Part shown: positions 28,683 through 46,477 of the stretch, in pieces
Numbering within the stretch: the first letter of the stretch is position 1
Layout of the letters: each line of letters opens with the position of its first letter
Assembly: GCA_017654855.1 (NCBI GenBank)
Contig: CM030337.1
Location: forward strand, 682,001 to 746,000
Direction: 5' to 3'
Source of the DNA: Podospora anserina
Lineage: Eukaryota
DNA: 64,000 nt
Position numbers and translations under genes: made by a program
Notes under the pieces: generated by a model
What the model saw: only the letters and a program-made list of their open reading frames with translations
Told to the model about the DNA's origin: nothing
Database searches by the model: none

Positions 28683-31165
28683 TTAAACTATTACCCTTCG
28701 CACCTCCACCCCCTTCCCCTTCTCCTTCTCCTCCACCACAACCTTCACCCCGGGCAGTTGTCCCAAACTGCCAGATGACCCCTCCCCCATCCCACCGGAC
28801 CCAGATTGATCACTCCCCGAACTCCCAACCCTCTCCCCCTGGATAACCACTTGTTTTTCCCCCCCAGCCCGGGCACTCACCCTCTCCAGCATCCTCGCCT
28901 GTGACCGTCTCCGTTGCTCCTCAATCTTTTGCTGCTGCTCCTCCTTCCGCTGCCGGATCGCAAGACAAAACTTGGAGTTGGACCTGATCTTGTCCCCCTG
29001 CCAGAGAAACACAAACGGAATAGCACACATGAGCGTGCTCACGCCCCCAAGCAGCGAGCAAGCACCGCTTATCCCCAACTTCTCAAACATGGGGAGAGTA
29101 GCCAAAGGCAAGACAGTAGCGAGCAAAGAGCGGGAGGTTGACGCGGCAGCGTTGGCAGACGCGGCGTAGACTTCGTACGCGTCGGTCAAATAGTTCCTAT
29201 CCCCATCACACCCAACATCAGTAACTATCACGGGAAGGGGGGTTAGGGGAGGGGGACAAACAAGAGAGCCTGGAAAATACACATAAACCCCACCCCAAAC
29301 GGCACCCCCGCCAGCATCGGCACAAAAAAGTGAACCCCCTCCTTCGCCGTCCATCCCAACCAAAAAAGACTAATCACAAACATCGGCCCCCCGACACACG
29401 CGAGCGGTAGCCGTCTGTACTCCTCCTGTCTAGTCCACGCCTTGTTCCTCGCCATCGCCGACCTCAGAACACTATCCCACACAAAAAAGATCGGCAACGC
29501 GAGTAAGCACCCCGCCCCAACGGCCAGATACGTCAACCCGCACTCCCCCGGCGAGAGCCCATAAACCCCAGTGAAAATGATCGGAAACGCCTCAAAACAC
29601 ATGTAAAAGATGGCATAACAAAGCGCGAGGTAAGCACACGAAGTGTTAACGATCGGCTCCGTGACGAGCATCTTGATGGGCCGGTATAAAACAACAGTCG
29701 TCAACTCCCTGAACGACTTCTTCTCCATCTCATGCAGCGCCACCACCCTAGCCTTGGCGTCATGAAGGCGAATCTCCTCAGCGCGTCGCTTGAGGAGGAC
29801 AGGACCGTATGTTTCTGGGAGGAAGAACAAGGGGACAAGTGTGCATCCCGCGTAAATAAGTCCAATCCAGAACGCCCATCTCCAGCCGATTGTTTCGGAG
29901 CAGTAGCCTGATATGATTGGGGCGAGTAAAGGCCCGGAGACGGTCGTCATGAAGAATAACCCCATGTTCCTCCCTCGAGTGCGAGGGTTGGGGGAGATGT
30001 CGGCGATTATCCCTGGGACGATGGCGATGGGGGCGGAGGCGAAGGTTCCGGTTAGGAGGCGGAAGATGAGGAAGAAGATCCAGCTGTTTGCGAGGGCGGT
30101 TGCGAGGGTGAAGGCGGTGAATATTAGGAAGGTGATCATTGTTGGGATTTTGCGGCCGAATTGCTCGGAAAGGGGGGCCCAGAGGATGGGGCCCATGACG
30201 TAGCCGATCAGATAGACGGAGATGGGGAGGACTTGTTGGGATTCGTTGGTAATGTCCCATTTGTCTGAGATAAAAGGCAGGGCGTTGGCTGGGAGGGCAG
30301 AGCCCATGGTTGAGTTGATGATGAGCATCATGCAAGTGATGAGGATGCAGGCTTTCTTGCCGGGGGACCACTCGTGCGGGTTGCCCGTGTCGTGGTCGGG
30401 TTCCCAGGAGACGATCATTTCTTCTTCATCGTCCGAGGTGGCGTGGCTGGAGGCGTAGTATGGAAAGGGGGTAGAAGTGGCGGGTGACTTTTTGAGGGAG
30501 GAGCTTTTGGTGAGGGTTCCGGTTGGTGGTTGGGGGTATTGGGTTTGTTGCTGTTGCTGTTGAGCGGGTTCAAAGGCCGCGATATCAAGCTCGCCGGCGA
30601 GAATGCTCATGCATGTTGGGCAGCGAGGATGAGCCTGCTCTGGAACCTGGGGTTCTTCCCGGTTCTCCCCACTGCTCTCGCCAACATCTCGCGCGGGCTG
30701 CGTGCTTGCCATTGACACCCCTCGGCCCTCAGTGCCTCCAGCGGCGGCCAGGATAGCCTGAACTTCCTCTTTCGACAAGCCCAGAATATCAAAGGAGCAC
30801 TCCCGTTTCACCGATCCATCGGGTGATACCACTCGCTGGCACATATCTGGTGTAGAAACTGTGGCACGAAGAGCGGATGGTGGGCGAGCTCGTGTGGTCC
30901 TGATTAACGGAAACGCTCTGGGGACCTGCGTCAGAGTTGCTTCTTCCGAGACCGTTTCGATCACGTCTTTCTCCTGTGGTGCTTCGACCTCTTTCTCACT
31001 CTCCCGGATAGCTTCTTCGTCTTTGGGTTCCTCAACTACGGGTTCATCAGACTTCTCGGGAACATCGAGTGTTGTCTGAGTGTCATGATAGCTCTGGAAG
31101 GATGGCCTGTGGTGAACATCGTCTCCTCCGTCGTACTGGCTGCTGGTTCGCTGTGGTTCTTCCAT
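28683..31165 (-). CDS. MFS drug:H+ antiporter (DHA1 family) with long N-terminal extension; intron 29197-29261
   Basis: W..D..NPHEWS..KK, WAPLSEQFGRK, IGWRWAFW, LPETYGPVLL, EEYRRLP and spliced ALLNYLTDAY..YAASA motifs; multiple TM helices. Confidence 0.9.
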
Positions 31166-32560
31166 GGCGATCAGGAAGCTTGATCGACTACCCAAAATCT
31201 ACAGCCAGGAGGTGAAGGTTGGGTGTGGAGGACAGGGCCCTGGTGATTGTAAAAGAGTGTATTGGTCGAAGTGTCAGTCACCAAGTCTGGCCAGAAGCAA
31301 AAATCCAACTCCGGGGAGCAGAAGATCAAATATCCCATCCACAGCTCGAGAGAGCGTGGACAGACGGCGCCGTGGGCGAGCTGAAGCAACCGATCACACA
31401 TGTCAGAGTGTAGCCCGCAGCACCAGAAAGAAGGCCACCAAGGTAGTTGGTTGCCGGGCATCACTGTGCATATTCTCCTGAAAAGCTTGAAAAGACCCTA
31501 GGAGAGGTAATGTGTTGGTCCTCTGTAACCATCGGGTCGGTGATAGCCCGGTTGCCGTTGAATTAGCTTTCGAAAAGACGGGACTAATGGGTCTAATGTC
31601 CCGTCTAGTAGGACAGAGTTAGAACGGCGTCGATGTGATAACGTGCACCACGAGACTGGGCCAACTGCAGGCCCGACGAAGGTGAGGTGAGCTGCCTTCT
31701 TTTCGGCGATAGCATTGCATCTCGACTCCTGTAGGGTGTGTGAGTTGACGGTGAGCTGTCATGATCTATCATATCGTGACAATGGACGAAGACAGCACCA
31801 GGCATCTCAGAGGCCCGGCCGAGAAATAAGGAGTCATCTGCAGGACTTGGCGGTCAATTGTCAAGTCCCGCACCCTGCATTTATGGGTGTCGGGTATCTG
31901 AACACCCACTATACCACAGCTCGAAGATGTAGTACGTGGTGGCTACTTCACAAGGGGACCTCCCCCCTGATTGGGGCTGAAACTGGCCCATGGAAAGGGT
32001 ATCTGGAACGCGCAAGGCTCAGTCGTAGGGCCAAACTACCGGGCCGTAGCATCGAGGTCTTGCTACTAAGTTTTGACGCGTTCCTAGCGGGATGATGTCA
32101 AACTCACGTCTGTGGGACATTAACGAAGCAAGTCTTAATGGAGATTCAGATTGGATTTCTTGATATTGCGCGCAAGACGGGATGCTATGTGCATTAGCAA
32201 TGCCCAACCCAACTATCGTGCTTGGATGTAGCTTACGAATTACTACACCCAGACCCCTTCATGAACGAATCTCCAATGGCACTGTAGCCAGTAGATCAAA
32301 TGAGTCCCGAACAAGTGGTGATGTGTCGGTCTCTCTCCTCCATCCCAAACCAGGCGTCGAGTTGGTCACAGGGTGGTTTCTCAAACTTGGATCATTGCCC
32401 CATCGTTTTCCTGCAAGATTCACAGAGTCAGGAGATGTCGGGGAACGGTGGCAGGTGAAAAGTGCAGACGTCGGGCAGGGGAATGCGGGGAGCCATCACC
32501 GCTGACATGCAGTAAGATGTTTCACATGTCTCGCAAAGAAGAGCTGTCCATTTCCTCCCA

Positions 32561-37584: not shown

Positions 37585-38585
37585 TGTGGCGTTGATTGGG
37601 CGGTTGATTCAGTTGTGGTTTGGAGATGATGGAGGGAATATCGATTATTGCGGTGAAGTCAAGCTCCGGGATGAGATGGGGTGGCGATTTTATGGAGTTG
37701 ATCAACGAAGCACAAAAATCTGGAGCAAAAAGGATATTGCTTCAGCGTATGAATGGAGGTGTAAGAAGTTATTCCAAATTCTTGTGAGGAAAGTCAAACG
37801 GTGATCTTTGTCCATGATTACCAAGACGGACCGATGTCACTCCAAGGGCGCGTCTCATCAAGCGTGCACGTGGCTAGGAAGCGCGTCGATGGTGCGCTGT
37901 CACGTGATGCCACCCTCTTGATATCGATGAGACGGTCTTCAGCTCGTGGTCGATAGAACAACAAACAGGAAGAAAGTGGAATATCCAACCCTTTGCGGTT
38001 CGTATTATTCATACCTATCTATTCAGCTGGTACACACTCAAGGTTTCTTCGCCATTGGACAAGCAGGAGCTCGCCGCTCGTTCTTTCCTCGTTCACAGAG
38101 CCTCGGTCAGAAACCGGGCAACAGGAAAGTGCAACTGGCATTTGTTGGCAGTTTCTGTTAACCCGAAGGGTGATTCGAGGCCAGGGACCCTTCTTATTTG
38201 TTGACTAGGCTTCCCACTTCAGGTTTTACTCCTTGAGAGGTTGCATTCGACCAATTCCATAGACGCTCACCAAAATCTTCGTTTGTGATTTCAACGACAG
38301 AAGTCGTTCAAATCCATCACAATACCATATACCATCATTCAAGATACCAGTAACCAAGTTTCCACTCCCAAATAAATCGAGCAGCTGTAAGCCAAACGCT
38401 CAAGTTTCATGTGACGCAGATGTAACAGTGGCGCAAGAAGGCACGGAAAGATGGTGTCGACCCCGCGACGCCCGGCCAAGCTGGTGACCGTCCCGTCAAC
38501 TGAATATATTACCCTATCTTACCCATTAGCAGACCCTACATGATCAATCTTGTCATCTTTCGACTCTTGGTCAACTAAACTCAAC

Positions 38586-40728
38586 ATGAACCGCAAAATC
38601 GAATGCCGGAGTGATGGGTGTGGAAATGAGGTCTTATTCAAGCCCACTCTTGAGGGGGGCTTCAACATCCATCAGCCGAACTTAGACCACTACCACTATC
38701 GCGATCATAGGAGATCGGTAGCTGGTGGGCGACGTCTTTCTCCTTATTGCAAGCAACGTAAGGTCCCTTTCTTAGACATTGTGATGATGAGAAGGCGAAC
38801 TGAGATGCGGTAGACACTTGTGCTCACTTCCACCGTGAAGAGTGCTGTACTAATAAGAAGCCTCCCCATGACACCGTTTGTGCTGTTCGTATGTTGACCC
38901 TGAAATGTCAACCTGCCGTGTGATGTGATGGTGATTAACAATGCCACCAGACACGAGATGTCCCATCCCGGACTGTCATCAAGCTCGGGCTCAGTTTCTC
39001 GACCCCAACTTTGACCCCCTTTCGAATGCTGTGCCGAGATATGCTCGCTATGAAGTGTGTGCTGACCGTATGTCTTTTCTCTCGGTAACCAAAGCTTTGA
39101 TTGCTTGCTGACTGTGGTTGTGAAGACAAATGCATTGTTCCGAGGTGCGCACAGCGAAGAGCGTCGACTAGTACTACCTTCTGTCAGGCTCGTGAGTATT
39201 TCCCTCCAATTCTGACACACAGTATGGTTACTGATATCATCAAGATGGGTGCAGAGCAGACGGATGTGGCAACGAGCGCCAGGACCAGCTTGAGTGTTGT
39301 GAGAAACGTATGTGCAACCTCATTCTCTTCAAACTCTATGAAAGACGGTACTGATACGATAGCTCAAAAGACCGATGTCACGCCAGGGGCTGCGACTTGG
39401 TTGTGGAAGGCAACCATACCCTCTGTGCTCACCGTGGGTGCCACCGCTGAATCCCATCATGGACAGCTGCTAACCACCAAATGCAGATATGACATGCGAG
39501 ATGAACGGCTGCGGAGGAGCAAAGCATTTTGAACCCAACAAAAAGGAATATTTGCCGTACTGCACCAACCGTATGTCCCTGCTTATTCATGAGTTTTGGT
39601 GTCCAGTCTAACCATGACATTTTTCAGATGCCACCTGCCCAGTTGCCCGATGTAAGCAGACGAGACTGGACCGACAGTCAGCTTTCTGCGATGACCATAC
39701 CTGTCGAGAGAGGGGTTGCAACAAGAGCGCCAGAGTGAAGCCGTATTGTGATGATCGTTAGTCTTCCCCCTCCCTGTAACTGCAACCGAGACTGACTTTG
39801 GACAGATCGATGTGCGGAAATCGACTGCGCCTATCCTATCGCCGACAAAACTGGAAGGTTTTGCCCACTGCGTAAGAGATATTTGCTTTGCCTTGACAAG
39901 TAGTACCGGATGCTAACACGAGAACAGATACTTGCCGAGCCGAAGACTGCCTAGAGTTCGTCAACAGTTTCTCCATATACTGTCAATCCCGTGAGACCTT
40001 CTTATCTGACCACCTCTCCGGCAGATAGCAGATACTGACATCAAATAGACGGCTGCTCCAAACCCAAATGCCTCCAACAATCCATCGTCGAGTACCTCTG
40101 CCTAGACCGTAAGCCCACCCCCTCTCCCAGAAACCGCCAACTAATTAATAAAATAGACCTCAAAAAACACTATACCGCCCTCGGTCGCCGCTCTGCCCTA
40201 ACCCCAGCCTCCTCCCAATTCGACACCGTCGCAACAAGCACCATAGCAGAGGACGACGATTCCTCCACTTCAGACGACAACGACGAGAGACGCCCAGGAA
40301 TAAGGAATAAACCCCCTAGCCTGAAAGGCGCCTACCCGTCCTCTTCGACGTTTAGCACCACCCACAGCCATACAAGATCAGCACCCATCTTTGCCCCTAA
40401 CTCCAATTCTGGCAGTGGAGGCAAAGAGACACCATTGACTACGAGGCCGAGCACAACACTCCAGATTCATACTCAGAATAATACATCTGACCCTCATCAC
40501 CCCTCGCCGTCGCAAAAGGGCCCGGGGTTTTACAAGGTGAACACTGCTGCTGATGGTGGTGGTGGTGGTGGTGGTGGTGATGGGGAGAGTGTTAGGGCAC
40601 CGTCACCCAAGCTTGTGCCTATGCCTCTGCCTGTTCCGAGCGACGATGGGAAGACAGGTTCGAGGCCGAAGCTCATGGAGGATATAGAGGGTATGGTGTA
40701 CAATCCTGAGAGGGGGTGCTGGGAGTAG
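38586..40728 (+). CDS. 12-exon protein with ~12 tandem C-x4-C-x~8-25-C-x2-H repeats and an S/T/P-rich tail
   Basis: Eleven GT-AG introns with branch points (donors about 38758, 38889, 39068, 39192, 39308, 39433, 39571, 39757, 39872, 39991, 40109) join into one open frame that ends in ORF 40435-40728. Confidence 0.85.
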
Positions 40729-41050
40729 TGGCCGTGCTAATTTATCTGTTGATTATTCCCATTTGTGAGATTGGAGTAGTGTGAAAGGAGAGAATCGTCC
40801 TTGATCGATTGCAAAGGGTAATTTATTATACCGTGATTTAACCGTGACCTCTCTCCAACACGACAAATCGTGCCCAACTCTATGATCCCCCTTCCCCATT
40901 ACTTGCCCAAGCGTGAGAATCTCTATGATTGATTGTAATGTTTTTTTTTGGATAAAAAAAAAAAAAAAAAAAAGGCCCGGAGCCCGACGCAAGAAAAGCG
41001 AACAGCGGCCTTTCCTACTGTAGCAAACCAAACACCAAACTTTAGTATAA

Positions 41051-41150: not shown

Positions 41151-41407
41151 CTAGGCTAATTCTTGTTTTATCACAACAGAAAAGGCCACTGTTCCCGTCT
41201 CTTGCGTAGGGCTCCGGCCCTTTTTCCTTTTTTTTTTTTTTGAAAAAAAAACAAAAAAAACTTTATACCCACTTATAGGCTCATGGGGAATCTCGATCGT
41301 TCCGTTACGCCACCACCTCTCGCAAACGCAATGACACTCCAGCCAAACATCCTCCTCCCCATCCATTCCCCTTGTGCACCCCTTCCATAGATCCTGATCG
41401 ACCCCTT

Positions 41408-42079
41408 TTAATCCCCAGTATCAACCTCCAAATCAACCTGCACCCCATTACTAACCCCGTAATCCCCCAGCGTGATATGATCCTTAAACGGCCTCTCCCC
41501 CTGCCTCTTGAGCAAAATCTCGTGCGGCTCCCGGCCAACCTTCATGGCGACCATAATCTTGAACTGGCCGACCGTGTCGGAGGGAAAAGCGGGGATCTGG
41601 GCTTTGGTGCCCAGTCTATCATTCACCGTGACGACAATCATTTCTTCTTGTGGCGCGATGGGTTGCCTGGGCTTCTCCTTCTTTTCTTCTCTTGGCTTAT
41701 CCCTTGGTCTGTCCCGTCGTGGCGAGCGCTCTCGTCTTGGGGAGCGGCGCCTGTCACGAGTGGCATCCCGTTCCCGGGGGGCAGCAGCAGAGTCGTGGTC
41801 TCGTCTGGTCGGGGAGCGATTTTGCCTTGAGCGATCGTTGTTGCTGTCGCGGTCTCTATCCCGTCTATCATCCCGATCGCGATCACGCCGGGGCGAGCGG
41901 TCGCGGTAGCCGCGCTGGAGGTTCTTGTCGCTGCTGTCTCGACCACCGCCGCGACTGTCTTCGCTAGTAGTAGGACGTTTCTCTTTCCATTTGAACCCGC
42001 CGCTGGCTTTTGGTCGTCTAGGCGGGGATCGACTTCGTGATCGTGACCGGCGACGAGGTGGTGGGTCTGCATCCGCCAT
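41408..42079 (-). CDS. RS/RD-rich protein with C-terminal Hub1/UBL5-like ubiquitin fold
   Basis: MIVVTVNDRLGTK...SDTVGQFK...KDHITLGDYGV aligns by eye with Hub1 (MIEVVVNDRLGKK...DSVGDFK...KDHISLEDYEV). It is preceded by ~145 aa of RSRS/RDRD. Confidence 0.85.
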   Translation of the reverse strand: MADADPPPRRRSRSRSRSPPRRPKASGGFKWKEKRPTTSEDSRGGGRDSSDKNLQRGYRDRSPRRDRDRDDRRDRDRDSNNDRSRQNRSPTRRDHDSAAAPRERDATRDRRRSPRRERSPRRDRPRDKPREEKKEKPRQPIAPQEEMIVVTVNDRLGTKAQIPAFPSDTVGQFKIMVAMKVGREPHEILLKRQGERPFKDHITLGDYGVSNGVQVDLEVDTGD

Positions 42080-42842
42080 TTTGGGGATTTGTTGTGGTTG
42101 TTGAGAGGAAAGAAGAAGAAAAAAGCGGTCGCAGGTTGGAGGAGGGCCTTCAAGGTGTAGAGGCACCTTAGCAGTGACGAAATTTAGGTGGGGCGCCCGG
42201 TTTGGGGTCGGTCAAGTGGCAGATGCCAAAGGGGAAAAAAGGTGAGCAAGAACATGTTAAACTAGCTAGGTAGCCATTAACAATAGAGAAATATGCTTCA
42301 AGAAGATACCTAGATAGATCCGTACGGTCTCCAACTCGCACAGAAGAGCAGAAATTCAAGAGTTGCCTATCCAAGTTTTACGCAATCGTACAAGCTGCCT
42401 GATAGACAACAAGGCGTACACACCATGCCCGAGCATTTGGCGAACACATACTTGAACAATATTGAAAAGGAGCTCCCTAGGTAGATTTCAAACACTGTAA
42501 ACAGTTGGCAGTCTGGGTGTCATTCTATCCGCAGCATCCAAAACTCGTCCCCAAAGAGCTCTCACTTCAAACCAAATCACAAAGCAATAAGACAAAGCTA
42601 GGCCAAAACGTTTATTCTTTTATGCACCAGAGGTCTACATAAACACAATAGGCACCTCCTTTTTCGCCCTTTTGCCTTTTATCATCACGATGTAAAAATG
42701 CAGCGCTTCACATGCATTAAGTATCGCAGACCACACCAGACAAATGCCCCCGTAGACGCCGCCATTACTCCGAATCCAAACGCCGAAGAGTCAACAACAA
42801 GCCCAAAAATGTGCCGAAAGGAGTATCATACAATAGAAGATA

Positions 42843-42929: not shown

Positions 42930-44758
42930 TTACTCCTTGCTGTGCTTCTTCTTCTTCTTCTTGTGCTCCTTCTCCTTTACTGGCGCCGCCTCCTCGTCAT
43001 CATCGTGCTTGCGCTTGGAGCTCTTGGTCTTGGCTGGGCTTTCGGTCTCTTCTGTTGGCTCCTTGGACTTCTTCTTCTCCTTCTTGTCCTTCTTCTCGCT
43101 CTTGTCCTTCTTCTCCTTATTTTCCTTCTTCTCCTTCTTCTCCTTCTTCTCCTTCTTGCTGGCCTTCTCCTCATCGGCAGGCGCGTCCTCCATCTCGACC
43201 TCCTCAATGAGGGGCTTGGCAGTCTCGGCCTCAGCGGCGACACCGTCGGCATCGGCGTTGTACTTGCGGGCCTCCTTGATGTCCCACTTGGGGACAGTGA
43301 TGTTGTTGGGGTTGGGGCCGAGCTTGGTGGAGATGGGCTTACCCTCCATCAAGCGCAGGCTGTTCTCGAGCTTGGCGCGAGACTTGATGCCGAGCTCGGC
43401 GCGAGTCTCATCATCGACATCCTCGTCGAACTCGGAAAGAGCATCAGTGCGCACACCAAGGGCGACCTTGGCGGCGAGCTGACGGGCAATCTTACCCTTG
43501 TTGTTACCAGAAGCCTGGCCAACGAGGGAGGCGTGGTAGATGAGACCATACTTGGGGGTCGCGTGCTTGGTCTTGAGGGCACGGAAAAGAGCCTTTTCGG
43601 CACCGAGAATCTGGATGGTAGAACCGGGGTTCTTGGCCAAGCTGATGAGGGAACCAGCGTGGGCAATAAGACGAGCACCAACAAGGGCGCCGAGAAGCTC
43701 GGTCATGTTGGGGGAGATGGCCTTCATGCGGTTCTCGAGGTACTCGGAAAGCTGCTTGCGGTACTCGGAAAGAGCAATGACACGTTCAGCGAGAAGCTTG
43801 ATGTTGTTGAGATCCTCCTCGTTGATCTCGGTACCCATGGAAATATCAGCGGCAGACTTGACGGCAGCCTCGATTTCGTGAGGGAGAATTTCGGAAAGGT
43901 CGGTCTCAGGAGCGTTGGTGCGGACACCCAGAGTAACGATAATCTTGGCATAAGAGAGGTTGTCGGGCAAAATCTTGGCCAACTCGGGGAAGTGCCAGCC
44001 GTACCATTCCTTGACGCGCATGGCATAGGTGTTGAGCTCCTTGTCCAAATCGTCAAGGAGGGAAACGGCGTGGACAATCATGATGTCGACCTTCTCGGGA
44101 GAGAACTTGAGCTTGTGGCGGGAGAGGGAGTGGGCCAGACCCAGAGACATCTCCTTGAAGTTTTCAGGGAGCATGCCGGGGACAAGCTCGGGAAGATGTT
44201 GTCTGATGGCGCGGAAGAGCTCATTCGTGGTGCTATCGGAGATGGGCTTGATGTTGAGCTCAGGCAGCTTCTTGATGGAGGCGCCAAGCTTGCTCTCGGC
44301 AACGGCAAGGGTGACCTTCTTCTCATCCTTGAACTCGTTGAGGAGGTTCTGGAGGCGTGGTGTGACCTTGCCTTCTACGAGGCCCGAGATTTCCTCGAGA
44401 GCCGAGGCGGCGCTGTCGAATTTGGCAAACTCCTTGTACTTGATCCTGTTGCGATGGTTGGTACTGGTTCTTGCTGTCAAGGTTTTTCGGTGGCTGGGTG
44501 AAAACTTACTCCTTGACGATTTTCTCAGTGGTGGAAAGACGGTCGGTCAGGTTGTCGTCCTCCAAGAGCTTCTTGTCGGAAGCCTTGAACAGGCCATAAC
44601 TGCATTGGCGAGTTAGCTGTCATGTTCAATGCCGGCTCAGGTGTGTCGCGACTCTTGTTCAAGTCAAGCAGTCGCAATCGCGTCTCTACAGAGAGAAGGG
44701 CCCATTGAACAGTCGGCACTTACCCGGCGCTGGTTTCGGTAAGAATGAAAAGACCCAT
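42930..44758 (-). CDS. NOP58: Box C/D snoRNP core protein Nop58 (3 exons)
   Basis: [71 protein letters not shown] and a KKE/D tail. Confidence 0.95.
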
Positions 44759-45232: not shown

Positions 45233-46477
45233 ATGGAGGGCCTCTTCTTCAACGTCAACAATGGGTATGTAACATAACACCTCCATATGTATCTGCATGA
45301 TGCATCACTTACCCCAAGGGTCCCCATCACTGACACTGACACCCCCCCGCAAAGCTACCTGGAGGGCATCATCCGCGGCTACCGCAACGGCCTCCTCACC
45401 AGCACAAACTACACCAACATGACCCAATGCGAAACCATCGACGACCTCAAACTCCAGCTCGGCCCCGCATACGGCGACTTTCTCTCCACCCTGCCCCCCA
45501 ACCCATCCACCTCCAGTCTCGCCACAAAGACAACCGAGAAGCTCGTCTCCGAGTTCCGCTACGTTCGCGCCAACGCAGTGGGCTCCCTCGCCAAGTTCAT
45601 GGATTACATCACCTACGGGTACATGATTGACAATGTCGCCCTCCTCATCACCGGCACCCTCCACGAGCGCGACACCCGCGAGCTCCTCGATCGGTGCCAC
45701 CCCCTGGGTTGGTTCGAGACCATGCCTGTTCTTTGTGTGGCCACCAACATCGAGGAGCTCTACAACAGCGTTCTCATCGAAACCCCCTTGGCCCCTTACT
45801 TCAAAGGCAGCCTCTCCCACCAAGACCTGGACGAGCTCAACATTGAGATCGTGAGAAACACACTCTACAAGAACTACCTGGAGGATTTCTACAACTTTGT
45901 CAACACCCACCCCGACATGGCGGGCACCCCGACAAGCGAGGTCATGACGGAAATTCTCGAGTTTGAGGCGGACAGGCGGGCGATCAACATCACGTTGAAC
46001 TCGTTTGGGACGGAGCTGTCGAAGCAGGACCGTAACAAGTTGTATCCCACTTTTGGCCGGCTCTATCCCGAGGGGACGTTGATGTTGTCGAGGGCGGATG
46101 ATTTTGAAGGGGTGAGGCTTGCGGTGGAGGGGGTGCACGATTACAAGTCGTTTTTTGAGGCTGCGGGACTAGGAGGTGGTCCGGGGGGACCGGGGAATAT
46201 GGGAGGGGGTTCGGGGTCGGATGGGAAGAGCTTGGAGGATATGTTTTATCAGAAGGAGATGGAGATATGCAAGGGGGCGTTTACGAGGCAGTTTGGGGCG
46301 AGTATTATTTATGCTTTTGTTAAGCTGAAGGAGCAGGTATGTTTTTCCTCTCTGCTTTTTCACAAATGGTTATGGAACTAACACGATGAATAGGAGGTCC
46401 GCAATATTCAGTGGATATCTGAGTGCATAGCTCAGAACCAAAAGGAGCGCATTGGTAATTACATCAGTGTGTTCTGA
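45233..46477 (+). CDS. VMA6: V-ATPase V0 subunit d; introns 45265-45354 and 46337-46393
   Basis: MEGLFFNVNNG|YLEGIIRGY, YMIDNV, CHPLGWF, EFEADRRAINITLNSF, KLKEQ|EVRNIQWISECIAQNQKERIGNYISVF. Confidence 0.96.

Follow-up and report, generated by a model that had tools for sequence, protein, structure and literature searches.

The window analysed here, a stretch of 64,000 nucleotides (nt) of Podospora anserina DNA (assembly GCA_017654855.1, contig CM030337.1, positions 682,001 to 746,000), carries on its forward strand, at positions 38586–40728, a gene whose product includes an array of 12 Cys/His repeats. The gene is real and expressed, and its exon-intron model is supported by RNA. The introns fall nearly once per repeat and occupy the same nucleotide of the codon for the terminal His. 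The locus is best explained, with good but not full confidence, as a constitutively spliced 12-exon gene that arose by ancient duplication and encodes an array binding 12 zinc ions. It belongs with two known kinds of gene, zinc-finger arrays and repeat genes of the exon-duplication type, and in relatives it is already annotated, as hypothetical.

Gene structure and transcripts

Scripted removal of 11 GT-AG introns leaves 1530 nt, comprising 509 codons and a stop, which are read from the ATG at 38586 to the TAG at 40726–40728 with no internal stop codon. In the six-frame list of open reading frames (ORFs) the gene is visible as fragments only, the longest of which (229 amino acids, aa) is the last exon; the remark in the first-pass annotation that the ORF track misses the gene is therefore accurate. 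The protein has 12 repeats, each terminated by CxxH, and there is nearly one repeat per exon. Of the 12 His codons of these motifs (11 at junctions between repeats and one at the array end), 11 are split by an intron, and all 11 introns are in phase 1, after the base C of the codon (C|AC or C|AT), as had been claimed. The single intron-free junction that had been pointed out was also recovered: exon 8 encodes two repeats (8 and 9), and the His codon CAT between them, at 39696–39698, is uninterrupted. The introns are 48–63 nt long, and a CTRAY branch motif lies 10–16 nt from the 3' splice site in nine of them. The internal exons measure 75, 117, 66, 63, 63, 84, 129, 66, 63 and 60 nt; all ten are in phase 1-1 and multiples of three.

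If 11 introns were placed at random among 1529 internucleotide sites, the probability that all would fall on the 12 His phase-1 sites is 4.7e-27, and the probability of phase 1 in 11 of 11 introns is 5.6e-6 by phase alone. On the strength of these two values, a chance origin of the intron periodicity was dismissed.

Among public sequencing runs, 14 contained about half of the sampled words of the locus, as expected of spliced RNA, and six contained about all of them and were taken as DNA. Three of the 14, from three studies (X1, X3 and X4), and one of the six (X15) were examined as assembled contigs; the label 'RNA?' attached to the former is a guess, none of them being recorded as RNA. X3 and X4, from two studies, each gave one contig of ~1470 nt that included all 12 exons, with 11 of 11 junctions at the exact predicted coordinates. 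X1 gave eight of the 11 predicted junctions, together with unspliced pieces across introns 4, 8, 9 and 10. The DNA run X15 showed none of the 11 junctions and one collinear piece over the locus. Since spliced junctions are present in X1, X3 and X4 and absent in X15, the contigs of the first three derive from spliced RNA. The gene model of the first-pass annotation is thus borne out by an open frame of 509 codons and by exact junctions in transcript-like contigs. Among the pieces listed for the three RNA-like runs there was no junction between non-adjacent exons, and retained introns were the only variants. The transcripts seen carry all exons, and the use of exon skipping is not supported.

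A single-base difference, T>C at 39021 in exon 3, was present in X1, X3 and X4 but not in X15. It is synonymous (CTT>CTC, Leu) and is most likely a strain polymorphism; A-to-I editing on the forward strand would instead appear as A-to-G.

Conservation and the predicted zinc module

A search with the C-terminal exon gave full-length annotated relatives in Podospora comata (P0001, 509 aa), Cercophora samala (P0002, 526 aa), Triangularia verruculosa (P0003, 533 aa) and Triangularia setosa (P0004, 591 aa). Identity between the window product and P0001 amounts to 98.8% in the array and 93.7% in the tail; the corresponding values are 87.5% vs 64.9% for Cercophora and 84.0% vs 55.1% for Triangularia, identity being higher in the array at every distance. 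Another four Podospora species are represented in the 90% cluster of P0001. In three of these the locus tag ends in _604890, and by the Podospora naming scheme the P. anserina gene is presumably Pa_6_4890. Among 1.84 billion cluster representatives searched with phmmer, 221 were found at E<=1e-3; the count falls to 53 at E<=1e-10 and to 21 at E<=1e-30. Orthologues were recognised in the Sordariales (Rhypophila, Cladorrhinum, Lasiosphaeris, Lasiosphaeria, Sordaria, Neurospora including N. crassa B19C19.090, Copromyces, Madurella, Trichocladium and Schizothecium), the Xylariales (Durotheca, Daldinia, Seiridium and Pseudomassariella) and the Lulworthiales (Zalerion), and all are annotated 'hypothetical' or 'uncharacterized'. 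The earlier placement of the sequence in the Sordariales is correct, annotated orthologues of like architecture being present in Podospora species. A literature search found no mention of Pa_6_4890, of N. crassa B19C19.090 / Q8X064 or of PF24906 / Zf_WRKY19. Papers listed for exon duplication, phase and fungi were not relevant as judged from the listing, and those listed for zf-C3Hc3H, KANSL2 and INO80D did not concern the present fungal family.

Repeat number, for which a comparison across strains had been suggested, was found to be kept in most but not all models. In an alignment of 25 annotated orthologues all 12 repeats match repeat for repeat in 21 sequences, and the other four (P0010, P0012, P0024 and P0029) have one or two repeats that are absent, incomplete or garbled. 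Of the alignment columns, 24 are invariant and a further 27 nearly so, and Cys or His occupies 48 of these. In fifteen of the sequences His fills every one of the 12 terminal columns, and the remaining ten deviate in one to three of them. Arg occupies five cells of the His columns in four orthologues: two in P0010 (Trichocladium) and one each in P0158 (Lasiosphaeria miniovina), P0029 (Zalerion) and P0023 (Daldinia). In P0158, P0029 and at the second P0010 site it is followed by an unalignable insertion, and the P0023 model ends 11 residues on; gene models that read C|GT through an intron at the same His site would give such Arg cells. Across nine Sordariales sequences there is no variation in many non-ligand residues that occur in one repeat only. 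Compared among themselves, the repeats have only three Cys columns in common, with a mean column identity of 29%.

Several annotated models show further irregularities. In P0020 (Lasiosphaeria ovina) and P0158 the place of repeat 8 is taken by a 30-residue Cys-free segment, the other 11 repeats keeping their ligands; either the finger has degenerated here or the exon has been modelled wrongly. The P. bellae-mahoneyi model P0165 also lacks the N-terminus, the P. pseudopauciseta model P0166 is frame-shifted across repeats 3–5, and several repeats are missing from the old N. crassa model P0174. The defects in P0012, P0165, P0166 and P0174 are probably annotation errors due to the symmetric exons. 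Within one species complex the annotated models measure 321, 372, 503, 509 and 510 aa; gene finders mis-handle the gene in this way because any exon can drop without breaking the frame.

The repeat has the form x-C-x4-C-x(9-42)-C-x2-H. It is regular in 11 of the 12 repeats, repeat 2 having C-x7-CC. Only one or two residues separate the His of one module from the first Cys of the next, and the array makes up the N-terminal two thirds of the protein. No Pfam family was found at threshold with eight exon translations or with the four full-length orthologues P0001–P0004, the HMMER filters dropping most matches above E ~0.1. The sub-threshold matches (Zf_WRKY19, E 0.11; CxC6, E 0.045; DDE_Tnp_1_2, E 0.18) were treated as noise or as leads. 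The first of these, PF24906, a model of 24 positions, is the only Pfam zinc-finger model that the repeat type touches: exon 8 scores 12.8 bits and a distant relative, P0072, 20.5 bits (E 4.2e-4), as against a curated gathering cut-off of 27 bits, and P0001–P0004 at full length give no match. Against the PDB, the whole-array profile A1 retrieved only low-complexity matches to the tail (E 2.7–8.2), and the single-repeat profile A3 only matches to the Cx4C knuckle (ZNF410, E 0.089; MyT1, E 2.1). The module is uncharacterised: by sequence comparison it reaches the threshold of no curated model and is related to no solved structure.

The structure predicted by AlphaFold2 (AF2) from the orthologue alignment has block means of the predicted local distance difference test (pLDDT) of 78–90 for residues 51–330, a helix at 318–333 and values below 50 for residues 336–478; a 77-residue piece of three repeats gave a mean pLDDT of 84.9. 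In the models a beta-bridge links the residue preceding each first Cys to a position about nine residues further on, so that a hairpin encloses Cx4C, and CxxH lies at a short helical turn in four of the 12 repeats (2, 5, 6 and 7), an order found in knuckle-then-helix fingers. Foldseek gave nothing at E<=1e-3 in the PDB for either model, the best match being the tandem LIM protein LMO2 (E 0.18, whole array). A wide search of the whole model with VIA-align returned ten chains with weak Z of 2.0–3.2, all on residues 275–344, and six of the ten were A20-type fingers (A20, ZNF216 and Rabex-5), the closest four having a root-mean-square deviation (rmsd) of 1.3–2.7 Å over 30–44 residues, again at weak Z. 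The internal three-repeat model had no match at Z>=2 among 48,161 chains, a missing match that does not show a new fold. The best ESM Atlas clusters, named 'hypothetical protein' (0.87) and 'NFX1-type zinc finger-containing protein' (0.84), are both below 0.9 and serve as leads only.

Each module would bind one zinc ion through its own three Cys and one His, giving 12 zinc ions in total, as judged from the ligand pattern and the model. Pairing within the repeat is favoured because the array opens with Cx4C and closes with CxxH, so that the 12 + 12 half-sites leave no orphans. If ligation is of this kind, each exon is therefore one finger to within one base, and the intron marks the finger boundary. 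The other pairing, in which the zinc unit is a C-x2-H-x(1-2)-C-x4-C knuckle across the junction, so that the introns halve each site and the exons encode linker loops with half-sites, is unlikely, though it has points to recommend it. The spacing CxxH-x(1-2)-Cx4C is nearly invariant, as against a spacer of 9–42 residues between Cx4C and CxxH, and the most conserved peptide stretches, used as metagenome search patterns, span the junction. However, this pairing leaves orphan half-sites at both ends (C7 and C12 at the N-terminus, C317 and H320 at the C-terminus) that are conserved in at least 90% of the sequences. It is disfavoured also by the hairpin and helical turn of the AF2 topology, and by the superposition of the last repeat, with weak Z, on A20-type fingers of that topology.

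Known fingers resemble the module in part. The zf-A20 domain has the ligand pattern C-x2-4-C-x11-C-x2-C, with four Cys ligands, and its likeness to the module lies in the Cx4C knuckle, the spacer of about ten residues and the C-x2-ligand pair that starts a helix. The last repeat with its helix (residues 298–331) is superposed on A20 ZnF4, A20 ZnF7 and ZNF216 with rmsd 1.3–2.1 Å over 30–33 residues and Z 2.8–2.9, and on Rabex-5 with Z 3.2; Z values of 2.8–3.2 can be due to chance, and they concern the last repeat only, the internal repeats being without a match. Unlike A20 (PF01754), the fourth ligand is His in 12 of 12 repeats, there is no Pfam match to that family at E<=10, and head-to-tail packing with linkers of one or two residues is not known from A20 fingers. 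The LIM domain consists of two sequential zinc modules two residues apart. Like it, the array has the last ligand of one module one or two residues from the first of the next, which would give a continuous rod; in contrast to LIM, the ligand spacing is different, there are 12 modules rather than two, no Pfam LIM match was found and the match to LMO2 is insignificant.

In the classical CCCH finger, which binds RNA, the spacing is C-x8-C-x5-C-x3-H. The three Cys and one His per unit are common to that finger and the module, which the first-pass annotation called C3H, but assignment to PF00642 is ruled out by the C-x4-C-x(9-42)-C-x2-H spacing and by the lack of a zf-CCCH match at E<=10. An NF-X1 type (PF01422) appears only as the name of the second ESM Atlas cluster and has no Pfam match.

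The C-terminal tail, encoded by exon 12, is rich in Ser, Thr, Pro and acidic residues and has a Gly run encoded by (GGT)n. Although conservation of this disordered tail is otherwise poor, its end, at 40680–40725, is conserved and consists of an acidic stretch and, after it, Gly and a Trp at or next to the C-terminus. This end is common to P0002, P0003, P0005, P0009, P0169 and P0178, and the AF2 model reaches pLDDT 78 at its last residues; a role as a short linear motif for interaction is possible. The isoelectric point (pI) is 8.0–8.5 for the array and 5.5 for the tail.

Distant relatives carry long arrays of the same module, and 17 of the 26 scanned had no family match at E<=0.001. Domains accompanying the arrays are Exo_endo_phos with MORN, PH with WW, methyltransferase, zinc ribbons, DUF285 with B-box and pilin N-methyl; a Diedel-family match was also noted, no stretch of which passes alone. 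The fusion to an exonuclease III-type nuclease in one distant relative hints at a DNA ligand, and the weak LIM and A20 resemblances hint at a protein ligand, neither hint being strong.

Origin of the introns and use of the exons

Genes with one repeat per exon that arose by exon duplication, with symmetric exons of the same phase, are classic in animal mosaic and repeat proteins. The present gene is like them in having one repeat per exon, phase 1-1 and introns at homologous positions of the repeat. It differs in being an ascomycete gene with introns of 48–63 nt, in being split inside a metal-ligand codon, in having no DNA similarity left between its units and in that alternative exon use was not seen in the contigs of the three RNA-like runs. 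Three features expected of exon duplication were found: the same phase with lengths divisible by three in ten of ten internal exons, homologous intron sites in 11 of 11 cases, and conservation of the sites in an orthologous locus, L001, to which the Arg cells in the His columns of four annotated orthologues add a read-through signature.

This locus was the one found by a metagenome scan based on a nine-sequence alignment, whose patterns span an exon junction, so that relatives with introns there would be missed; the comparison of intron sites thus rests on a single genomic orthologue. L001 has 186 identities in 356 alignment columns of the array and is given as 48% identical. It has ten introns, all in phase 1 in the terminal His codon, after repeats 2–7 and 9–12, which correspond to window introns 2–11. 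Window intron 1 is absent from L001, and the junction of repeats 8 and 9 is intron-free in both.

Among the 11 window introns, no similarity to one another was credited above that of shuffled controls (observed maximum 0.077 vs shuffled maximum 0.051), and the array DNA contains no direct repeats beyond one 15-nt chance match. Residual DNA similarity is thus lacking among introns and among exons alike, which fits great age and gives no positive proof of duplication. As L001 nevertheless keeps the same intron sites, the periodicity is ancient. The first-pass annotation proposed that the array grew by tandem duplication of exon plus intron; this stands as the most economical account, in agreement with the sites common to both loci, but as an ancient event that has left no sequence similarity among introns or exons.

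Tandem duplication of exon plus intron, followed by a few precise intron losses, is accordingly a reasonable inference from the sequences and the best explanation of the pattern. The ancestral unit would have been one finger exon together with an intron that followed base 1 of its closing His codon; amplification of this unit by unequal recombination, before the orders of the Sordariomycetes diverged, would have given the symmetric phase 1-1 exons. Introns and exons would later have diverged beyond recognition at the DNA level, and two introns would have been lost precisely, one at junction 8/9 (in the window and L001) and one at junction 1 (in L001 only).

Independent and repeated gain of introns at the His codon after Cxx, in a pre-existing intron-less array, is the other possible source of the pattern and is distinctly improbable. 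It would agree with intron cores that are mutually unrelated and with the occurrence of same-module arrays in apparently intron-less genes elsewhere (P0041, P0054 and P0047), and the intron-free junctions 8/9 and, in L001, 1 could be sites that were never hit instead of losses. It needs, however, 11 independent insertions at one nucleotide of the same codon. The usual proto-splice site is MAG|R, and the exon flanks here, NNC|AYN, are unlike it; there is also no sign among the window introns of a common introner-like sequence. Moreover, the L001 introns coincide with window introns in ten of ten cases, so that the gains would all have to be old and then to have stopped.

The ten internal exons, being in phase 1-1 with lengths divisible by three, can be dropped in any subset in frame, with regeneration of the His codon. 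The in-frame skippability asserted in the first-pass annotation is thus arithmetically true. It was taken there as giving a combinatorial recognition array, which is not what the data indicate: only adjacent exons are joined, the contigs are full-length in two studies and the positions of the repeats are conserved. The inspection of RNA junctions for skipping isoforms that had been advised, as carried out on the contigs, gave a single 12-exon form plus intron retention. The outcome named beforehand as refuting the combinatorial part, one isoform spliced constitutively and no variation in repeat number, is thus the one that was seen.

A use of the symmetric exons as alternative cassettes, with regulated skipping giving in-frame isoforms that have different finger subsets, can be given hardly any weight. 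Beyond the arithmetic, some annotated models appear to speak for it, since they lack exact exon units: repeats 4 and 12 in P0012 (Schizothecium), repeat 11 in P0165 and, among other defects, repeat 4 in the old N. crassa model P0174. Exon skipping is also known in P. anserina. According to a published account of alternative splicing in this species (PMC9801653), it affects 138 genes and is the rarest class, alternative 3' sites being used in 1016 genes, alternative 5' sites in 758 and introns being retained in 438. However, N. intermedia P0169 keeps the repeat 4 that the old N. crassa model omits, so that this omission looks like an artefact of gene prediction, and in the RNA-like runs the listed pieces join adjacent exons, with X3 and X4 full-length. 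Furthermore, the 12 repeat positions align across orthologues, each with its own conserved non-ligand residues, which is unexpected for interchangeable cassettes; as each finger has its own long-conserved identity, interchangeable cassettes are disfavoured.

A related proposal combines an undescribed class of head-to-tail C3H modules with exons that are skipped occasionally or conditionally, for example in sexual development or under stress, so that the zinc rod is shortened finger by finger. In that case the models lacking units in Schizothecium, P. bellae-mahoneyi and N. crassa would be real isoforms or cases of evolutionary exon loss. This, too, is very improbable, if slightly less so than regulated cassettes.

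The preferred reading is therefore still that of a constitutively spliced gene of ancient duplicate origin with a 12-zinc product. The short introns would be removed individually, leaving a mature mRNA that carries all 12 fingers. Twelve zinc sites with linkers of one or two residues would form a rigid, rod-like and mildly basic array, in principle similar to an extended LIM protein. The individually conserved fingers would bind a macromolecular partner, either a nucleic acid or an extended protein ligand, and the acidic/Trp C-terminus of the disordered tail would give a second interaction site.

A number of findings weigh against this reading. The transcript evidence consists of assembled contigs, from which rare variants are dropped, and minor or condition-specific isoforms could have been missed; P0012, P0165 and P0174 lack exactly one or more exon units. 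Duplication is not demonstrable by similarity, single repeats having only Cys columns in common. The array-bearing relatives P0041 and P0054 lie on prokaryote-style contigs and have no introns, so that arrays of the module can form without them. A junction-spanning CxxH-x-Cx4C knuckle is sterically possible. With a pI of 8.0–8.5 the array is not strongly basic, and the heterogeneous domain partners of its distant relatives point to no single function.

The locus is a clean fungal case of a repeat array in which each repeat, with few exceptions, still has its intron, always at one and the same nucleotide of the codon for a metal ligand. From loci of this kind exon duplication can be dated and the precise loss of introns measured, in a lineage whose short introns are removed singly. 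It also flags a conserved Sordariomycete protein, hypothetical in all annotations, with a zinc module that has no Pfam model at threshold. The one-intron-per-finger pattern is a neat case, not a revolutionary one, and the locus gives no present evidence for a new regulatory mechanism.

Feature coordinates and neighbouring genes

Table 1. Coordinates, in the 64,000-nt window, of the parts of the zinc-finger array gene and of neighbouring genes
Feature	Position	Strand	Evidence
Upstream ORF (uORF) of 12 codons within the 5' leader; its end is 8 nt from the main ATG	38540-38578	+	sequence
Exon 1: start codon and repeat 1 (Cx4C, long spacer, first base of the CxxH His)	38586-38757	+	splice model, contigs
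Intron 1, 56 nt, phase 1 in His codon	38758-38813	+	junction 38757>38814 in X1, X3, X4
Exon 2: repeat 2, irregular, Cx7CC instead of Cx4C	38814-38888	+	splice model
Intron 2, 62 nt, phase 1 in His codon	38889-38950	+	X1, X3, X4
Exon 3: repeat 3, long spacer	38951-39067	+	splice model
Intron 3, 58 nt, phase 1 in His codon	39068-39125	+	X3, X4
Exon 4: repeat 4	39126-39191	+	splice model
Intron 4, 53 nt, phase 1 in His codon	39192-39244	+	X3, X4; retained in X1 contig
Exon 5: repeat 5	39245-39307	+	splice model
Intron 5, 63 nt, phase 1 in His codon	39308-39370	+	X1, X3, X4; in-frame stop if read through
Exon 6: repeat 6	39371-39433	+	splice model
Intron 6, 53 nt, phase 1 in His codon	39434-39486	+	X1, X3, X4
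Exon 7: repeat 7	39487-39570	+	splice model
Intron 7, 57 nt, phase 1 in His codon	39571-39627	+	X1, X3, X4
Exon 8: repeats 8 and 9, unsplit CAT 39696-39698	39628-39756	+	splice model
Intron 8, 49 nt, phase 1 in His codon	39757-39805	+	X3, X4; retained in X1 contig
Exon 9: repeat 10	39806-39871	+	splice model
Intron 9, 56 nt, phase 1 in His codon	39872-39927	+	X1, X3, X4; also retained in X1 piece
Exon 10: repeat 11	39928-39990	+	splice model
Intron 10, 58 nt, phase 1 in His codon	39991-40048	+	X1, X3, X4; also retained in X1 piece
Exon 11: repeat 12	40049-40108	+	splice model
Intron 11, 48 nt, phase 1 in last His codon	40109-40156	+	X1, X3, X4
Exon 12: short conserved helix, disordered tail, conserved C-terminal end, stop TAG 40726-40728	40157-40728	+	splice model, AF2, alignments
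Major facilitator superfamily (MFS) transporter, E 1.8e-39	29243-31198	-	
Nop56/58-type small nucleolar ribonucleoprotein (snoRNP) protein, Nop domain E 1.3e-79	42930-44546	-	
V-ATPase subunit d, E 8.6e-84	45278-46381	+	

The RNA-like contigs start at 38494 and 38499, on the 5' side of the uORF, although they do not define true 5' ends. As they begin upstream of it, the uORF is probably on the mRNA, where it could affect translation.

Between the stop codon of the gene and its convergent neighbour lies an inverted repeat (40943–41031 and 41163–41251) with 89-nt arms that are 79% complementary, 131 nt apart and bordered by long tracts of A and T. In form it resembles an element of the miniature inverted-repeat transposable element (MITE) type; the RNA-like contigs reach at least 40900. 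The convergent ORF downstream (41408–42211, reverse strand) has a weak match to the ubiquitin family (20.3 bits, E 4.7e-4, cut-off 25.4), and it thus adjoins a gene whose last finger weakly resembles the ubiquitin-binding A20 fingers; adjacency in fungi is weak evidence. The flanking genes in Table 1 are unrelated housekeeping genes.

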